A DNA stretch of 64,000 bases from positions 156,152-220,151 of the forward strand of contig JAHFKK010000001.1 in NCBI GenBank assembly GCA_023245335.1. Direction: 5' to 3'. The stretch is from Candidatus Gottesmanbacteria bacterium (GTDB taxonomy: Bacteria > Patescibacteriota > Microgenomatia > UBA10105 > UBA927). How positions within the stretch are numbered: position 1 is the first letter of the stretch; each line of letters starts with the position of its first letter. Under the pieces are notes generated by a model. The model had not been told where the DNA came from, ran no database searches, and was given only the letters and a program-made list of their open reading frames with translations. Made by a program: the position numbers and the translations under genes. Shown piece by piece: positions 10,586 to 37,676 of the stretch.

Positions 10586-12451
10586 CTACCTGATTTTCGC
10601 GCCCTTTGGCATGCCTTCAGCAGAAATAAACAGCGGTTTTAATTTATCCGCTGAATCCACAGCTAAAATCATCCCCTGACTCTCTTCATCCATCATTTTC
10701 CTTGGTGCCAGATTGGTAATGAAGAAAAACTGCTTGCCGACAAAATCTTCCGGCGTATACCCGAATCCCCGAACACCGGTAAATATAATACGCGATTTGT
10801 CTTCAGCAATATCCACCACTAATCGAATGAGCTTTTCGCTCCCCTCTTTATTTTTCGCCTCAAAAACCTTGCCGACACGGATCTCCATACGTGCGAACTC
10901 TTCTATGGAAAGGGTCGACCCGGCGGTAAGTTTGGCGTATCCAAAAAATGAATAGCTATTTGTAAGACCTATGGCCTCCCGCGCTCCAGTCATCGTCTCG
11001 ATAGCAATAGCCGTTGCACGCTCCTGTCCGCGTTTCAGGATATCCTTAACTATTGAGGGGTTGGCTTTCAGCTCGTCATACGCTTTTCTTGCAGGCGCGA
11101 AGTACATCACCAGGCATTCAAATAAGTACTTCTTGACGTCTACGTCGGCGACCGCTCCCTGTTTGTAGCTTTCTTTAAGTTCGGACACCTTACCGGGTTC
11201 ACCGAAAAAATCCAAGTATGTAAATACCATATTCCCCTCGATGTGTCCCGGGTCAGTTGCGTGCTTCCGTGCGGGGTCCGTAAAAGTGCCATGTACCTGC
11301 TTTTCTATGACTGCTTCGGGCTCAAACATACTAATAATGTTTCCGAGCGTCTTACTCATCTTTCGTTTGCCGTCAGTGCCTAATACCACAGCGACTTCTT
11401 CCGGGATGTAGGGCTCTGGCAATGTAAAAACTTTCTTCTTATAAATTTTGTTGAAGCGCTCTGCAATGTCGCGGGTAATCTCTATATGTTGTTTCTGATC
11501 CTTCCCTACCGGAACGAGATCTGCCTGATATAAAAGAATGTCCGCGGCCATAAGCATGGGATAACTGAACAACCCGACGTTAATGTCATCTTCCATGACA
11601 TCTTTCTGCAATTTATCCTTATAAGCATGCGCGCGCTTGAGAAGTCCCAACGGTGTCACGTTATTGAGGATAGACTGACACTCGGTATGCATCGGTACGT
11701 CAGACTGACGGAAAAAAACGATTTTTTCGAACTGCTCTTTTGTCAAAAATCCTTTCAGAAGTGCCAATTCGTTTAGTACTAACGCCTCGACGTTATGCTG
11801 CAGCTGTTTTTTATCTTGTATCGTCGTCAATGCATGCAGATCAGCGACCATGAGATACGTCTCGTTCGTTTTGGAAAGCTCAATAAATTGCCGCACGGCG
11901 CCAAGATAGTTACCTATATGTAGTGACCCGTCGCCGCTCGGGGTAATGCCCGAGAGGCAACGTTTTCCACTCGGTGCTTCTTGTGTGTGGTCAAAAAACG
12001 TAAAGTCCCCAACCTGTCCATGGTTTACAAAAACTAAATCCTTCGCCTCCATTGCCATACCCATCGTCTTTATTCCCCCAGTCCCGTACGCTTTGCCGAT
12101 GGACAAAACTTTTTCATCCACATAATAGGAAATGTCTAAACCGAGGTATGGTACAAGACCCACTTCTGTCCCCAATGAATGCAAATCTTCCTTGGATGCG
12201 AACACTAATTTTTTCACTCCGGCTACTTTTTTGAGTTTTTCTTGGTCAATCTGTGTATCAGCCCGCTTCGTTACCCCGATTATTCCTTTTTCCGTACGGT
12301 ACAAAATCGTTACCATGGCATTTTTCATTTTTATCCCATGAAACGCTGCGTGGGACGGGACATCCGGCGCCAATTCTTCCGGCAACGGAATGAATGTGTA
12401 TTCAACCTTTTTATCATCCAGAATATTTTTGATTTTGTCTTTAAGATTCAT
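10586..12451 (-). CDS. trpS: Tryptophanyl-tRNA synthetase with N-terminal YbaK/ProX-like deacylase domain and C-terminal Trbp111/EMAP-like tRNA-binding domain
   Basis: The class I core has HIGH-like SLHIGNYLG and KMSKT (RKMSKTLGN), with TrpRS-like GITPSG. The N-terminal ~150 aa resemble the YbaK editing fold. The C-terminal ~110 aa, EIRVGKVFEAKN...GMILA, form an OB-fold tRNA-binding domain. The start was placed at ATG 12451, which is preceded by GGAGA. The ORF-track start 12526 lacks an RBS. Confidence 0.8.
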   Translation of the reverse strand: MNLKDKIKNILDDKKVEYTFIPLPEELAPDVPSHAAFHGIKMKNAMVTILYRTEKGIIGVTKRADTQIDQEKLKKVAGVKKLVFASKEDLHSLGTEVGLVPYLGLDISYYVDEKVLSIGKAYGTGGIKTMGMAMEAKDLVFVNHGQVGDFTFFDHTQEAPSGKRCLSGITPSGDGSLHIGNYLGAVRQFIELSKTNETYLMVADLHALTTIQDKKQLQHNVEALVLNELALLKGFLTKEQFEKIVFFRQSDVPMHTECQSILNNVTPLGLLKRAHAYKDKLQKDVMEDDINVGLFSYPMLMAADILLYQADLVPVGKDQKQHIEITRDIAERFNKIYKKKVFTLPEPYIPEEVAVVLGTDGKRKMSKTLGNIISMFEPEAVIEKQVHGTFTDPARKHATDPGHIEGNMVFTYLDFFGEPGKVSELKESYKQGAVADVDVKKYLFECLVMYFAPARKAYDELKANPSIVKDILKRGQERATAIAIETMTGAREAIGLTNSYSFFGYAKLTAGSTLSIEEFARMEIRVGKVFEAKNKEGSEKLIRLVVDIAEDKSRIIFTGVRGFGYTPEDFVGKQFFFITNLAPRKMMDEESQGMILAVDSADKLKPLFISAEGMPKGAKIR

Positions 12452-12527
12452 ATTTTCTCCTTTGATATTACCATTACTTTCGTTTTGGCGCCCCACCGAT
12501 TTAGGGTAGGGCGCCTCGTACGACATT

Positions 12528-17684: not shown

Positions 17685-18545
17685 ATGGCACTGGAACTTA
17701 AACTCGCACACAAGCAATTTATCGAATACCTGGGTTCACGCAGGCGTGCTCGTGCTACCATCGTAGCATACAGTAAAGACATCGAGCAGCTTATCCAGTT
17801 TTTGGGAAACACAGGCAAAAAAGACATCACAACGATCTCCCGCGAGGAACTCGAGGCGTTCCTAAAGAAACTTGCCGCCGATAGCTATACCCCAAAATCC
17901 ATCTCCCGGAAAATTAACTCTATGAAGACCTTTTACCGATTCCTGAAGGCGTCGGGAGCTGTTCCTGTCGACCCAGCTTCGGATATTGAACACCCGAAAT
18001 ATGATGTGAAGCCGCCGCGCATCTTATCCAAACTCGAATACCGGGCTCTTCGGGACGCGTGTCGCGGAGACGTACGAACCTATGCAATTGTCGAACTCTT
18101 TTTACAGACGGGTCTCCGTATCGGAGAACTCGCCAACCTTTCCGTCGAGGACGTCCGGGAAGCAGAACTTCATATCGTCGCCGAGGAAGGTCATGAAGAG
18201 CGCATGGTACCCCTTAATCACGCCGCGAAGGAGGCGCTTGCGAGCTGGATGATAAATCGCGGCAACGGAACCAAGTCAAAAGCGCTATTTATAACCAAGA
18301 CGGGCCGCTCACTCCTTATCCGAAATATCCGAACCGCCATTGACCGGTACTTTAAAATCGCCGGCATTGAGGATGCCAAGGTAAATGATTTGCGCCATAC
18401 GTTTATCGCCCACCACCTCATGGCCGGCACTCCGATTACAACTATTAGTAAACTTGTCGGTCACAAACGGTTGTCCACCACGGAAAAATACCTTGAATTC
18501 ATCAAGGATAAACCGGCCGAACACGTAAAATTAGAGGAACTGTAA
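17685..18545 (+). CDS. Tyrosine recombinase XerC/XerD-like
   Basis: 286 aa with an N-terminal core-binding domain and a C-terminal catalytic region carrying R...HTFIAHH...GHKRL...Y. Confidence 0.8.
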   Translation: MALELKLAHKQFIEYLGSRRRARATIVAYSKDIEQLIQFLGNTGKKDITTISREELEAFLKKLAADSYTPKSISRKINSMKTFYRFLKASGAVPVDPASDIEHPKYDVKPPRILSKLEYRALRDACRGDVRTYAIVELFLQTGLRIGELANLSVEDVREAELHIVAEEGHEERMVPLNHAAKEALASWMINRGNGTKSKALFITKTGRSLLIRNIRTAIDRYFKIAGIEDAKVNDLRHTFIAHHLMAGTPITTISKLVGHKRLSTTEKYLEFIKDKPAEHVKLEEL

Positions 18546-18552
18546 CTCCTTC

Positions 18553-18849
18553 GTGAACTCCCTGGAAAATAAAATTCATAAAGACATCGTGCATGCCAGA
18601 CGTAAAGCCGCCCAATACGAACGGCGACTATGGAACAACAATGACGCCGAGCATTTGGCGTTAACCGGGTCTACAACACAAATGAGCGACGAAGCAATTC
18701 GCGCTTCCTCTCAACGGTTTCTAGTGACAAATATCGCCGAGGTCCATGCTAAATGGAGATCTGACCTATCTACACTGTCTCTCCTAAATAGGGACTTGTT
18801 ATGGCGTAGAGCGTATAAACCGAAACCGCTAATAGACTGGCTTCTTTGA
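18553..18849 (+). CDS. Hypothetical protein
   Basis: 98 aa ORF immediately after the xer-like gene. No recognisable motif. Confidence 0.3.
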   Translation: MNSLENKIHKDIVHARRKAAQYERRLWNNNDAEHLALTGSTTQMSDEAIRASSQRFLVTNIAEVHAKWRSDLSTLSLLNRDLLWRRAYKPKPLIDWLL

Positions 18850-18889
18850 CAGATAACGGCTTCATAATCTATAATTTAGCTAAGGAAAC

Positions 18890-19044
18890 GAAAAGCGACT
18901 GAATCCCGCCAGTCACGGGATAAGCTGCAAACTGAACAGAGAGTAAGTTTGCCGGGTAAGCCCGTCACCGCTCAAGCGAGAAGTAAATAAGGTGGTACCG
19001 CGAATGTCCGTTCGCCCTTATAATAGGGATGAACGGATTTTTTT
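18890..19044 (+). promoter_or_regulatory. T-box riboswitch leader, Val specifier (GUA), controlling valS
   Basis: A specifier-loop-like CAGAGA-GUA-A lies at 18937-18946. The T-box consensus AAUAAGGUGGUACCGCG is at 18986-19002. A terminator hairpin UCCGUUC...GAACGGA plus U7 at 19007-19044 directly abuts the valS ATG. Confidence 0.55.
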
Positions 19045-21342
19045 ATGGATAAAAACTTTGATTCGAAGACGGCTGAAGAGGGCATATATCGGACGTGGGA
19101 ATCCGGAGGATACTTCACTCCGGCCATTGACCCGAAGAAAAAGCCGTTCACCATACTCCTACCTCTCCCTAACGCAAATGACCCCATGCATATGGGTCAC
19201 GCCATGTTTACTGTGCAGGACATCCTCATCCGTTATCACCGCATGAAGGGTGACCCGACATTATGGCTACCCGGAGGCGATCATGCAGGCATAGAGACGC
19301 AATATGTATTTGAAAAACGACTCGCGAAAGAAGGAAAAAGCAGATTCCAGTTCGACCGCGAGACGCTCTATACGATGATCGAGGCATTCGTCGAGCAAAA
19401 CAAAACCACCAACCGCGATCAAATGAAGCGCCTGGGCTTCTCAATGGACTGGTCACGATACCGCTACTCTTTGGATCCGGATATTGTAGCAACGGTACTG
19501 GATACATTCCGAAAAATGCATGAAGACGGTCTTGCCTATCGGGACTCCAGACTCGTCAACTACTGTACGAAGGACGGCACAGGATTCTCCGACCTAGAAG
19601 TTCTCTATGTCGAACGTACCGATCCTCTGTATTACATGAAATACGGACCGTTTACCGTAGCGACCGTCCGCCCAGAAACGAAATTCCGCGATACCGCTCT
19701 CGCCGTCAATCCGAAAGATAAACGCTACAAAGATGCGATAGGAAAGACATATGAAATCGTGGGGCTTTTGGGGCCGGTCAAAATGACGGTCATCCCCGAC
19801 CCTGACGTCGATCCCTCTTTTGGCACCGGAATTATGAAAGTCACTCCGGCGCATGACCCGCATGATTTTGAACTCGGGAAAAAATTTAATCTACCGGTCA
19901 CGCCGATTATCGATCAACGCGGACGCATGGACTTCGCGTGGTTTCTCACCCAACAGGATAGTAATCCTAAATATCGGGAGCGCGCAGAAAAATATCATGG
20001 CAAAAAGGTGGCTGAAGCGCGAGCGATCATGGTTGAAGACCTTAAGGCAGACGGATTACTCATCAAAATCGATGAAAACTATGTACATCGGATAGGCACA
20101 TGTTATCGTTGCGGATCAGTTCTGGAACCGCTCCCGATCCCCCAGTGGTATGTCAAAACAAAACCGCTTGCTAAAAAAGCAATCCGGGCAGTCAAAGACG
20201 GAAAGACAAAAATAGTTCCGAAAAAAAGATTTGAGAAGATGTATTTTGACTGGATGAATAACATTCTCGACTGGAACATCAGCCGCCAGATTGTATGGGG
20301 ACCGCGCATACCGGTCTGGTATTGTCTCGATTGTAACCCGGATATCACTATTAGTTTTATCGACAAACAACTAGCGAAAATCTTCGGCGATTACAAAAGC
20401 ATTATTTCCAAATATCAATTTTCCGATCTGAAGAAGGGATTACAATCGCTAAGTGCCCCGCTCCATGCGACATATTCACTCTCACCTGAGCCATGCCAAA
20501 AATGCCATAGCACACATGTTCTTCAGGAAACCGACACCTTCGACACCTGGTTCCTTTCCAGCCAGTGGCCTATGACCACGTTGGGGTTTCCTGACAGCGC
20601 GGACTTCAAATATTTTTATCCAACCTCTGTTTTGGACACCATGTGGGATATATTATTTTTCTGGGTGGCTCGCATGATGATGATGGGTCTCTATCGTACC
20701 GGAAATATTCCGTTTGAGGTTATCCATCTTCACAGCCGCGTCGTAGATCAGCATGGTAAAAAAATGAGTAAAAGCAAAGGCAACGTCATGAATCCTATCG
20801 ACATGGTCGACAAATACGGAGCGGACGCACTTCGTATGGCGCTCATATATGGGGCGGCGCCCGGAAGCGACATCGCCATCTCCGAGGACAAAATTCGGGG
20901 CATGAGGAACTTTGCCAACAAACTCTGGAACATGGGCCGGTTTATCCATATGAACATCGACGCCACAGGAAAAGAAATCCCGTTTTACGACAATGAATTT
21001 CATAAAACGCTCACAGACGCCAATGACAAACGGATCATTTCCGAACTCAACATGCTGACTGCGGGCGTTACCAAGGATATCGAGCGATACCGGTTTTCCG
21101 ATGCCGCTCAGGCGATCTATGAGTTTGCCTGGCATCGGGTGGCCGACGTCCATTTGGAAAAAAATAAGGACCGTTTCAAATCGGGCGATATCCAAGCAAT
21201 TACGGTGTTACGGCATGTGTATATCACACTTCTCAAATTGCTTCATCCGTTCATGCCGTTTGTCACCGAATCCGTATGGGCGACATTCCCGCGCAAACGC
21301 ACGGAACCTCTCATCGTCTCTTCCTGGCCAACTGCAGGATAG
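19045..21342 (+). CDS. valS: Valyl-tRNA synthetase (short form, no C-terminal coiled-coil)
   Basis: Class I HIGH (PMHMGHA) and KMSKS (KMSKSKGN). A ValRS-type N-terminus (YRTWESGGYFTP), an editing domain and a T-box(Val) leader upstream. Confidence 0.85.
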   Translation: MDKNFDSKTAEEGIYRTWESGGYFTPAIDPKKKPFTILLPLPNANDPMHMGHAMFTVQDILIRYHRMKGDPTLWLPGGDHAGIETQYVFEKRLAKEGKSRFQFDRETLYTMIEAFVEQNKTTNRDQMKRLGFSMDWSRYRYSLDPDIVATVLDTFRKMHEDGLAYRDSRLVNYCTKDGTGFSDLEVLYVERTDPLYYMKYGPFTVATVRPETKFRDTALAVNPKDKRYKDAIGKTYEIVGLLGPVKMTVIPDPDVDPSFGTGIMKVTPAHDPHDFELGKKFNLPVTPIIDQRGRMDFAWFLTQQDSNPKYRERAEKYHGKKVAEARAIMVEDLKADGLLIKIDENYVHRIGTCYRCGSVLEPLPIPQWYVKTKPLAKKAIRAVKDGKTKIVPKKRFEKMYFDWMNNILDWNISRQIVWGPRIPVWYCLDCNPDITISFIDKQLAKIFGDYKSIISKYQFSDLKKGLQSLSAPLHATYSLSPEPCQKCHSTHVLQETDTFDTWFLSSQWPMTTLGFPDSADFKYFYPTSVLDTMWDILFFWVARMMMMGLYRTGNIPFEVIHLHSRVVDQHGKKMSKSKGNVMNPIDMVDKYGADALRMALIYGAAPGSDIAISEDKIRGMRNFANKLWNMGRFIHMNIDATGKEIPFYDNEFHKTLTDANDKRIISELNMLTAGVTKDIERYRFSDAAQAIYEFAWHRVADVHLEKNKDRFKSGDIQAITVLRHVYITLLKLLHPFMPFVTESVWATFPRKRTEPLIVSSWPTAG

Positions 21343-36263: not shown

Positions 36264-37676
36264 CTAGTTGGGTAAAGATGAAGATGAGACGGAGGAGGGG
36301 AGAGTGCCTATTTTCTTCACCCATTCCTTAAACTGATCACCGCGATCTGCGTAATCACGAAATGTGTTAAAACTGGCTGACGCAGGAGAGAGTAAGCATA
36401 TCTTCCCTCGGGGCGTATGTAGGTACGCCAATTTCACAGCATCTTCCATGGAAGATGCTGTGAATCTTTTTAAAATGTGGGCCTTTTGCGCGCGCTTCGT
36501 CACGACGCCAATTGACATCCAAATTTTTTCTCCGGTGTCGGGAAAAAGAATGAGCGTCGCCACAGGATGACTTCGCAAATATGCACCTAATTCAGCGTAG
36601 TCTATATGCCGATCAAGTCCGCCCACGAGAAGAGTCGCGACATCCGATCCCAATGCCTCGAGCGCATGGATGGTTGCCTGCGGAATTGTCGCAAGCGAAT
36701 CATTGTAAAATCGCACATTGTGGAACTCACCCACAAACTCCAACCGGTGCGGAAGGGGCTGAAATGGAGTTATTGCCCGAGCGATAGTGGGAATAGGAAT
36801 ATTCATAAGGCGGGAAACGGTTACCGCCGCCAATACATTTTCCTGATTCCCTAATAACGGCACATCCGACATCATGAGTACGGGGGCAACATCCGCGCCT
36901 GTTCTCACCGAAATCCATCCGTCCTTAAGGAATGTAGAAAGCGTGTCCGACGCTTCATCCCCATAGATAATTTTTTGCGCTCGTGTTGAAGAAATAAGTT
37001 CGCGCACGAACGTGTGTCTTGGGTTATACACGAGATAGTCACCACGCGCTTGATGCGACGTTATATTAACTTTTGCATTGGCGTAACTTGCAAGGTTTGG
37101 ATAATAATCTAGGTGTTCTGACACAATGCCAAGCATGACCGCAATATGAGGACCATAGCGACAGTCAAAAAGCTGGTGGCTCGAAAGTTCGAGAACAAAC
37201 ACCGTTTCCTCTGTCGCTAATTCAAGGCTATCAAGCATGGGAACTCCAATATTTCCCACCAACCGAACATCACGATACATCGCTGAGAGTATTTGTTTTA
37301 TGAGGCTGGAGGTCGTACTTTTTCCCTTTGTCCCGGTTATACCGATGGTGACACCCTTTACTCTCGAAAAAAATACGTTTGTGGCCGAGGTCATGTAGCC
37401 GCCATGTTGCAAAAATTTTTGTATTTCAGGGGTGTACGGAGAAATGCCCGGGCTTCGGATTATCGTATCGTATTCATCGAGATGAAAAAGGTATCCCTCT
37501 CCGTTATAGACGGTCGCACCTTTATATTTCTCGCCAGACACGAGCTCTGTCTCGACATTTCTATCTGCAATCCCAACCCTAAGCGCGGGGTAATATTTAG
37601 CAAGCCATGCGTGGACACTTCTGCCCTCTCTCCCGTAGCCGACAATGAGCACTGATTTTCCTCGTATTTCTTCCAT
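36264..37676 (-). CDS. murD: UDP-N-acetylmuramoyl-L-alanine--glutamate ligase MurD (possibly L-Glu-specific MurD2 type)
   Basis: Mur ligase domains with GITGTKGKSTT P-loop, DRNVE-like Rossmann N-terminus and a C-terminal domain. The start was trimmed to MEEIRGKSVLIVGYG. Confidence 0.8.
   Translation of the reverse strand: MEEIRGKSVLIVGYGREGRSVHAWLAKYYPALRVGIADRNVETELVSGEKYKGATVYNGEGYLFHLDEYDTIIRSPGISPYTPEIQKFLQHGGYMTSATNVFFSRVKGVTIGITGTKGKSTTSSLIKQILSAMYRDVRLVGNIGVPMLDSLELATEETVFVLELSSHQLFDCRYGPHIAVMLGIVSEHLDYYPNLASYANAKVNITSHQARGDYLVYNPRHTFVRELISSTRAQKIIYGDEASDTLSTFLKDGWISVRTGADVAPVLMMSDVPLLGNQENVLAAVTVSRLMNIPIPTIARAITPFQPLPHRLEFVGEFHNVRFYNDSLATIPQATIHALEALGSDVATLLVGGLDRHIDYAELGAYLRSHPVATLILFPDTGEKIWMSIGVVTKRAQKAHILKRFTASSMEDAVKLAYLHTPRGKICLLSPASASFNTFRDYADRGDQFKEWVKKIGTLPSSVSSSSLPN

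Follow-up and report, generated by a model that had tools for sequence, protein, structure and literature searches.

Can a bacterium of the Candidate Phyla Radiation (CPR) govern an aminoacyl-tRNA synthetase gene through a leader RNA that senses the matching tRNA, and how little RNA would suffice for the task? The question is raised by the short segment (positions 18890-19044) that precedes valS, the gene for valine-tRNA ligase (ValRS), within a 64,000-nt stretch of a Candidatus Gottesmanbacteria genome (contig JAHFKK010000001.1), referred to throughout as the window. Judged by its sequence, this segment is a genuine valine-specific T-box, and an unusually small one, and the reading favoured here, at a probability of roughly 85 %, is that a miniature tRNA-Val-sensing T-box riboswitch controls valS. 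T-boxes are the paradigm of one structured RNA reading another and constitute an antibiotic target class; the biological logic at this locus would be ordinary, in that an aminoacyl-tRNA synthetase is placed under feedback from its own tRNA. An initial annotation of this DNA had proposed a T-box with valine specificity in a CPR-like genome, and these proposals stand: the Rfam model RF00230 (T-box) matches the leader over its full length, the specifier follows the identity of the downstream gene (valS or ileS), and the named nearest relatives of the window's ValRS are entries of the Patescibacteria group and of Gottesmanbacteria. The motifs on which that annotation drew are likewise all found where it had placed them within 18890-19044.

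RF00230 aligns end to end (model positions 1-219) to 18889-19022 with 48.0 bits, against a gathering score of 93, and with an E value of 1.2e-9 locally and of 1.8e-7 over the whole 64 kb window with 4227 families searched. The shortfall reflects deleted segments of Stem I and Stem III and not a poor match. In the alignment, only 7 nt stand for 74 model positions of Stem I, and only 2 nt for the interior of Stem III, which spans 17 positions in the model; the remaining parts, i.e. the K-turn, Stem II with its GAA...AGUA, Stem IIA and the antiterminator with its UGGUACC bulge, all match. The initial annotation had held that a sub-threshold Rfam score would speak against a T-box; the score is formally sub-threshold, and this is uninformative, since the deficit consists of the deleted segments. 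A scan of the whole window at gathering thresholds returned tRNAs only, the T-box emerging only under E-value reporting; seven sister leaders score 34-48 bits, and L093 and L162 are unreported at E <= 0.001. Annotation by gathering score would miss the whole class of leaders. The leader also folds more stably than shuffled sequences (z = -3.1).

Relatives of the window's ValRS were taken from genome contigs and from a large protein collection, and the leaders ascertained in this way through the protein, besides that of the window, are L083 (ValRS 81 % identical), L085 (79 %) and L003 (63 %). When the MAFFT alignment of these four leaders (A1) was scored against the proposed structure, including its pseudoknot, 98.1 % of cells were paired and 12 of 26 pairs were compensatory, as compared with 28-46 % of cells and 0-2 compensatory pairs in controls in which the 3' partners were slid by 1-3 columns. 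A covariance model (R1) was built, and further leaders were drawn from metagenomes with the DNA pattern AGAAGYAANTAAGGTGGTACC, which leaves Stem I untouched; no match to the T-box pattern was found in viral contigs. The pattern search also gave many compact T-boxes from non-CPR sources (gut, rumen), which lend loose support only, AGAAGYAA..GGUGGUACC being fixed by the pattern.

Stem I is confined to the first hairpin, GCGACUGA-AUCCCG-CCAGUCA-CGGGAU-AAGC (18895-18925), in which 18903-18907 pair with 18917-18921 and a sixth pair, G18908-C18916, forms in the window. All five helix pairs are 100 % paired in the four aligned leaders, three of them with compensatory changes, the covarying versions being AUCCC/GGGAU, GUCUU/AAGAC and GUCUG/CAGAC. 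The K-turn sequence falls on the K-turn positions of RF00230, and in this sequence-level test G13, A14 and A35-G36-C37 are invariant across the four leaders, the window and L083 having A.A as the second tandem pair, where L085, L003 and L115 have A.G. The distal platform of Stem I (AG bulge and distal loop, the interdigitated T-loops or IDTM) is absent, 74 model positions of Stem I being missing; of the two Stem I landmarks named by the initial annotation, the K-turn is therefore present and the distal-loop motif is not.

The decoding triplet is to be sought in the apical loop of this hairpin. In ten CPR-type leaders built on one scaffold (genes called with NCBIfam), the same loop column holds GUC ahead of seven valS genes and AUC ahead of three ileS genes; a single base, G or A, thus tracks valS versus ileS, while the AGUA of Stem II occurs in both sets. 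The valS leaders found by pattern (L115, L150 and L093) have the loop A-GUC-A and belong to ValRS proteins 61, 51 and 47 % identical to the window's (47-81 % for all seven GUC-leader genes), and the ileS leaders found by pattern (L122, L151 and L162) have A/U-AUC-A, with the IleRS of L151 and L122 falling within the Gottesmanbacteria/Daviesbacteria/Curtissbacteria group. Among the four protein-ascertained leaders the loop AGUCAC is invariant. Because the loop base tracks the gene whereas the Stem II AGUA does not, the predicted specifier can be taken as settled, namely the GUC at 18912-18914. In the great majority of known T-boxes the specifier ends in C (the 'C rule'), a purine follows, and short Stem I's carry the specifier in the apical loop (PMC7583486); GUC-A fits both the C rule and the 3' purine. 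Looser alignments of other compact leaders from the pattern search, made by eye and less secure, place GUC or GUA before Firmicute-like valS, CAC before hisS, GAA-A before gltX-like genes and ACC-A before thrS.

A different codon had been chosen in the initial annotation, which saw a specifier-loop-like context in CAGAGA-GUA-A; on that model, the leader would be a canonical class I, Firmicute-type T-box reading GUA as the valine codon. The GUA does exist, at 18943-18945 within CAGAGAGUAA (18938-18947), it is a valine codon followed by A, the neighbouring AGAGA resembles a specifier-loop motif, and the rest of the element is that of a T-box. However, RF00230 puts this hairpin (18927-18952) on Stem II, where GAA...AGUA forms the S-turn; the AGUA is found in leaders of ileS too, irrespective of the amino acid; a canonical codon stands on the 3' side after GAA, whereas here GAA is 5' and AGUA 3'; GUA breaks the C rule; and the triplet that does change with the gene is the one at the apex of the first hairpin. 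Interpretation of the GUA as part of a specifier loop accordingly fails, and a GUA-decoding leader is regarded as highly improbable.

Beyond the GUC-bearing hairpin, Stem II (GCAAACU-GAACAGAGAGUA-AGUUUGC, placed there by RF00230) shows compensatory change at six of its seven pairs in the four leaders, with GAA and AGUA both conserved. The adjoining Stem IIA is invariant, and the IIB pseudoknot is 100 % paired, with two of its three pairs compensatory (AGC/GCU, AGU/ACU, UCGC/GCGA and UUGC/GCAA). No Stem III helix is possible in the 14-16 nt between IIB and the first strand of the antiterminator in the four protein-ascertained leaders, the interval having no self-complementarity, and AGAAGYAA is invariant in the same set. 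A 5'-RRRNG...AA-3' motif is known to flank Stem III (PMC7583486, PMC7778990), which is present in the ileS T-box of Mycobacterium tuberculosis (PMC11297988). Two other assignments were considered for this interval: a 1-bp 'Stem III' between G18978 and U18984 was rejected, the pair being A-C in L083, and the Rfam placement of RRRNG on AAGCG (18974-18978) was passed over in favour of AGAAG, since only AGAAG is invariant.

The output end of the element offers two competing structures. The sequence AAUAAGGUGGUACCGCG lies at 18986-19002, and the antiterminator is assembled from helix A1 (AUAAGG 18987-18992 with CCUUAU 19016-19021), invariant in the four leaders, the bulge UGGUACC (18993-18999), which occupies the 7 nt between A1 and A2, and helix A2 (GCGAA 19000-19004 with UUCGC 19011-19015), the outer pair of which covaries between G-C and A-U; the core of this structure, AAGG-UGGUACC-GCGAA...UUCGC-CCUU, spans 18989-19019. 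The UGGU of the bulge would pair with the 3' ACCA of the tRNA, i.e. including discriminator base A73. In the alternative structure, UCCGUUC (19007-19013) pairs with GAACGGA (19031-19037), and U7 follows at 19038-19044. This hairpin and A1/A2 are mutually exclusive, since nucleotides 19007-19021 are common to both and the 3' strands of A2 and A1 make up the 5' arm of the hairpin; the folding energies are -17.4 kcal/mol for 19007-19037 alone and -19.3 kcal/mol when extended, versus -7.2 kcal/mol for the antiterminator in a constrained fold. The mutual exclusion of a hairpin with U7 and an antiterminator had been foreseen in the initial annotation, for which failure to form the latter would have been damaging; with the T-box bulge in place, it does form. 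A simple terminator scanner did not flag 19007-19037, its stem being interrupted by a bulged A, and the hairpin was evaluated by folding.

Table 1. Features of the valS leader and its surroundings in the window
Feature	Positions	Strand	Description
Sigma-70-type promoter, TTGACA-18 nt-TATAAT	18846..18875	+	12/12 consensus matches, best within 20 kb
Ultrashort Stem I	18895..18925	+	K-turn/GA base (GC-GAC-UGA ... AA-GC), 5 modelled pairs, 7-nt apical loop CCAGUCA
Specifier GUC (Val) and conserved 3' purine A	18912..18915	+	In the Stem I apical loop; predicted partner, the GAC anticodon of tRNA-Val
Minimal Stem II	18927..18952	+	7-bp helix, 12-nt loop with S-turn halves GAA (18934-18936) and AGUA (18942-18945)
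Stem IIA hairpin and IIB pseudoknot	18953..18972	+	CGG/CCG, 18953-18955 with 18962-18964; AGC 18959-18961 with GCU 18970-18972
Purine string AGAAG-U-AA	18979..18986	+	Taken to be the usual Stem III-flanking motif, RRRNG...AA
Antiterminator	18987..19021	+	A1, 7-nt bulge and A2; RF00230 alignment, all pairs standard
Terminator-like hairpin and U7	19007..19044	+	UCCGUUCGCCCU / AGGGAUGAACGGA; 12 pairs (13 with G19006), bulged A, 6-nt loop
valS (valine-tRNA ligase)	19045..21342	+	765 aa; ATG at 19045 directly after the U7 run

Other leaders build the terminator differently. In L083 (2300-2364), L085 (1831-1893) and L003 (2918-2982), as well as in L115 and L162, the antiterminator's 3' strand has no part in the terminator, which is formed by pairing of the palindromic GGUACC within the bulge with a further GGUACC just before U7 and which encloses helix A2. 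Because of that pairing, the terminator of these leaders would sequester the bulge that binds the tRNA acceptor directly. Strong sites combining a hairpin with a U-run also occur elsewhere in the window, e.g. at 14520-14501 and 36433-36464, which show that signals of the intrinsic-terminator type occur in the genome. Two of the hairpins, at 14462-14417 (-) and 14520-14501 (-), consist of a 20-bp stem and an 8-bp stem with U7 and lie just upstream of the tRNA-Trp gene (14409-14336, -).

Based on the promoter in Table 1, transcription is predicted to start near 18882, a few bases (~7 nt) upstream of the T-box, so that the 5' untranslated region would measure ~163 nt and consist essentially of the T-box element; a -10 box also stands 6-19 nt ahead of the AAAGCG with which the leader begins in L003, L083 and L085. 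From the architecture, its covariation, the match of specifier to gene and the competition between structures, a mechanism can be inferred that involves tRNA binding, termination and a translational component. Transcription would proceed from the consensus promoter, and the GUC in the apical loop of the 5-6 bp Stem I, seated on its K-turn, would decode tRNA-Val; if the solved structures of ileS T-boxes from actinobacteria are a guide, the codon-anticodon helix would be clamped by the S-turn (GAA/AGUA) together with the IIA/B pseudoknot, both of them thereby replacing the missing elbow platform. The 3' end of an uncharged tRNA would then pair with the UGGU of the bulge and stabilize the weak antiterminator (~-7 kcal/mol). 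Otherwise, the stronger hairpin (-17 to -19 kcal/mol) would form ahead of U7 and, most likely, terminate transcription just where the coding sequence begins. With the end of the hairpin only 8 nt before the AUG, ribosome loading on read-through RNA would probably be blocked too, amounting to dual control, and in the ON state the U-rich single strand ahead of the AUG would be a plausible landing site for ribosomes that do not depend on a Shine-Dalgarno (SD) sequence.

The initial annotation had noted that the U-run meets the ATG with no SD and had deemed the resulting start context unusual; the first observation is correct, but the second does not hold, as the SD signal of the window is at background. 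The valS start codon itself is fixed by the N-terminus MDKNFD, which is kept in orthologues. Before it, the only SD-like element is a GGA at -10..-8, which lies inside the base of the hairpin (-4.2 kcal/mol). For the window as a whole, genes were called crudely as the 49 longest non-overlapping open reading frames (ORFs; e.g. 4362-, 5443-, 22358-, 32647-, 50900+ and 60907-), and the pairing of positions -20..-4 with the anti-SD averages -2.0 kcal/mol at these starts versus -2.4 kcal/mol at random internal positions, ~10 % reaching -6 kcal/mol. A TAnnnT box ends 4-9 nt upstream, mostly at exactly 6 nt, in 11 of the 49 starts as opposed to 6.7 % of random positions (p = 3e-4), which suggests that leaderless mRNAs are widespread in this CPR genome. 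Among relatives without the T-box, valS or ileS begins 6-14 nt behind TATAAT or TACAAT (L082, L087, L002 and L208-L212). A start without an SD is the norm in this genome, and what sets valS apart is its possession of a long leader.

Whether the hairpin acts on transcription or on translation is a separate matter. In a purely translational, class II-like arrangement the full-length mRNA would always be made, with 19007-19037 as a sequestrator and U7 as a spacer or standby site. An ultrashort Stem I with an apical specifier is indeed a hallmark of the translational T-boxes of actinobacteria (PMC7583486, PMC7778990), the proximity of the hairpin to the AUG is compatible with such a role, and five metagenome leaders (L150, L093, L122, L203 and L130) carry strong SDs of the AAGGAGG type within the 3' arm, the distance from SD to AUG being filled by the U-run, which touches the AUG in L122 and L203 as it does in the window. 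Against it stand the 3' arm of the window, which offers nothing beyond the GGA in a genome that does not use SDs, and the G+C-rich hairpin of 12-13 bp followed by U7, a textbook intrinsic-terminator signal. Moreover, the U7 is kept in L083, L085, L003 and L115 despite hairpins that are built differently, and in those leaders the U-run cannot mask a ribosome site because it lies ~22 nt (L085 and L003, L115 being similar) or 160 nt (L083) upstream of the AUG. An exclusively translational switch is thus considered unlikely; termination is probably primary in the leader of the window, with a likely contribution from translation as well.

Several points weigh against control of valS by a tRNA-sensing, terminator-type riboswitch. 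The score of 48.0 bits is below the Rfam threshold. The contrast between valS and ileS draws on 10 leaders, some of which are related, and the metagenome pattern fixed AGAAGYAANUAAGGUGGUACC, such that conservation of that stretch among the leaders it found is not independent. The A2 pair beside the bulge is G19000-C19015 and not the conserved G.U wobble; across the ten CPR-type leaders it is A-U in eight and G-C in two. A G.U wobble at the base of A2 is implicated in the rejection of charged tRNA. The tRNA genes of the window are those for tRNA-Trp and two tRNA-Met only, and no tRNA-Val gene was found in the window or on the 24 loci inspected. Finally, transcriptional T-boxes have been held to need a long Stem I with an elbow platform, and Stem III has been held to be indispensable (PMC7583486); with both absent, function of the terminator type is not guaranteed.

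The T-box is sporadic in Microgenomates relatives. The valS leader is present in 4 of 17 protein-ascertained loci with a ValRS identity of at least 48 % (the window, L083, L085 and L003) and absent from L082, L086, L087, L001, L002, L004-L009 and the named genomes L211 and L212; in a scan of genome contigs with the ValRS, L003 was the sole bearer among the nine closest. None of three protein-ascertained ileS loci has a T-box, and neither a valS nor an ileS T-box was found in the five named or near-complete Gottesmanbacteria-type genomes checked. Because close relatives lack it, the element appears to have been gained or lost repeatedly within Microgenomates-type CPR. In L082, L087, L002, L210 and L211, which have no T-box, valS or ileS sits 6-7 nt behind TACAAT or TATAAT and is apparently leaderless and constitutive. 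The metagenome-assembled genomes L001-L004 and L006 (ValRS 49-65 % identical) are titled 'uncultured Gammaproteobacteria'; their ValRS groups with Patescibacteria/Microgenomates, and the titles look wrong. The only other synthetase gene in the window, 10586-12526 (-), has no T-box by Rfam or R1; it encodes a class Ib (Trp/Tyr-type) synthetase of 646 aa that carries a tRNA_edit (YbaK-like) domain at its N-terminus and tRNA_bind at its C-terminus, an unusual fusion of three domains.

So patchy a distribution might be taken to mean that the leader is decaying and non-functional, a leftover in a lineage from which the T-box is disappearing, valS in most relatives having its promoter right at the ATG: L082, the closest relative (85 % ValRS identity), and 12 other loci are without the T-box, Stems I, II and III are all reduced, and the wobble at the base of A2 has given way to G-C. 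Decay is difficult to reconcile, however, with compensatory changes that keep every helix and the pseudoknot across leaders whose ValRS proteins are 47-81 % identical, with a promoter of perfect consensus, with the invariance of the T-box bulge, AGAAG-Y-AA, the K-turn and the specifier, or with the recurrence of the same reduced build before ileS with the matching codon. A functionless relic is, on this evidence, scarcely credible.

As a functional valS riboswitch, the leader combines traits of two known systems. The decoding half is closest to the actinobacterial ileS T-boxes with an ultrashort Stem I (Mycobacterium tuberculosis, Nocardia farcinica; TBDB 'class II'; PMC7583486, PMC11297988), with which it shares an apical specifier on a very short Stem I over a K-turn, a specifier that ends in C and is followed by a purine, the lack of an elbow-binding distal platform, a UGGN bulge between A1 and A2, and as its target a synthetase of class Ia specific for a branched-chain amino acid. 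It differs from them in its CPR (Microgenomates-type) host, in its specificity for Val (Ile in other CPR contigs), in a Stem II pared down to a hairpin of 7 bp whose terminal loop bears the S-turn, and in having no Stem III helix and measuring ~128 nt, whereas the ileS element of M. tuberculosis possesses Stem III and extends 166 nt to its antisequestrator; in addition, the expression platform is a hairpin with U7 resembling an intrinsic terminator in place of an SD/anti-SD sequestrator. The output half is closest to the Firmicute transcriptional, terminator-type T-boxes (RF00230; Bacillus subtilis tyrS, glyQS), as it shares with them the T-box sequence AAGGUGGUACCGCG with its 7-nt bulge, the reuse of the antiterminator 3' strand as the 5' arm of a stronger terminator that precedes a U-run, the K-turn at the base of Stem I and the matching aminoacyl-tRNA synthetase as target. 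Unlike in Firmicute leaders, a 7-nt loop takes the place of the specifier internal loop, the AG bulge and the distal loop of Stem I (~74 model positions), Stem III has collapsed, the A2 base is G-C and not G.U, the model score is about half its gathering value, and the U-run touches a start codon that has no SD.

It may tentatively be proposed that Microgenomates-type CPR bacteria carry a hitherto unannotated minimal class of T-box, ~130 nt in length and devoid of elbow platform and Stem III helix, with a Watson-Crick pair where the G.U sensor pair would stand; its output would be an intrinsic terminator placed hard against the start codon, in a genome without SDs. If this were true, two generalizations would fall, namely that a long Stem I is needed for transcriptional T-boxes and that the tRNA 3' terminus cannot be sensed in the absence of Stem III, and the leader would be the smallest natural scaffold to read both the identity and the charging of a tRNA, decoding and charge sensing being compressed into ~130 nt. 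Because decoding of a kind known only from actinobacterial translational switches would be joined to terminator-type output without Stem III, the leader would furnish a natural test of which T-box parts are essential. The leaders also indicate that CPR bacteria, with their reduced genomes and a gene regulation of which very little is known, in some cases place valS and ileS under feedback from tRNA charging. Full-text searches found no literature on T-boxes together with CPR, Patescibacteria, Saccharibacteria or Parcubacteria, though prior notice in unpublished or unsearchable form is possible, and a search for T-boxes lacking Stem III likewise found none; the short-Stem-I model of TBDB was searched only in Actinobacteria and among class I hits.

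The valS ORF scores 792 bits against NCBIfam NF004349 (cut-off 704), covering profile positions 2-697 of 860, and the encoded protein is without the C-terminal ~160 residues of the profile. The ValRS proteins of the window and its relatives are all short (720-775 aa) and do without the same ~160 residues, the region of the tRNA-binding coiled coil. A gene for a XerC/XerD-like tyrosine recombinase (17685-18545, + in the window) lies directly upstream of valS in several relatives (L083 1319-2179, L085 561-1421 and L211 1-563), whether or not a T-box stands between them, and a 98-aa ORF (18553-18849) between the recombinase gene and the valS promoter matches no family and is perhaps not a gene.

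Compact leaders of related build were also encountered in the metagenomes before other genes. Those of L191 and L149 are T-box-like and precede a very long IleRS (~1170-1180 aa), the first hairpin of L191 having a 4-nt loop, AUGA, with no Ile codon. Compact T-boxes of the same build as the window's likewise precede free-standing tRNA-binding proteins of 110-118 aa and of the CsaA/Trbp111 type (NF007495), at L176, L178/L198, L182, L206, L203, L128, L114, L130 and L116. No T-box is known to control a protein of this type. By eye, the apical loops of these leaders contain CCC or CCG and a purine, and they are possibly proline-specific.

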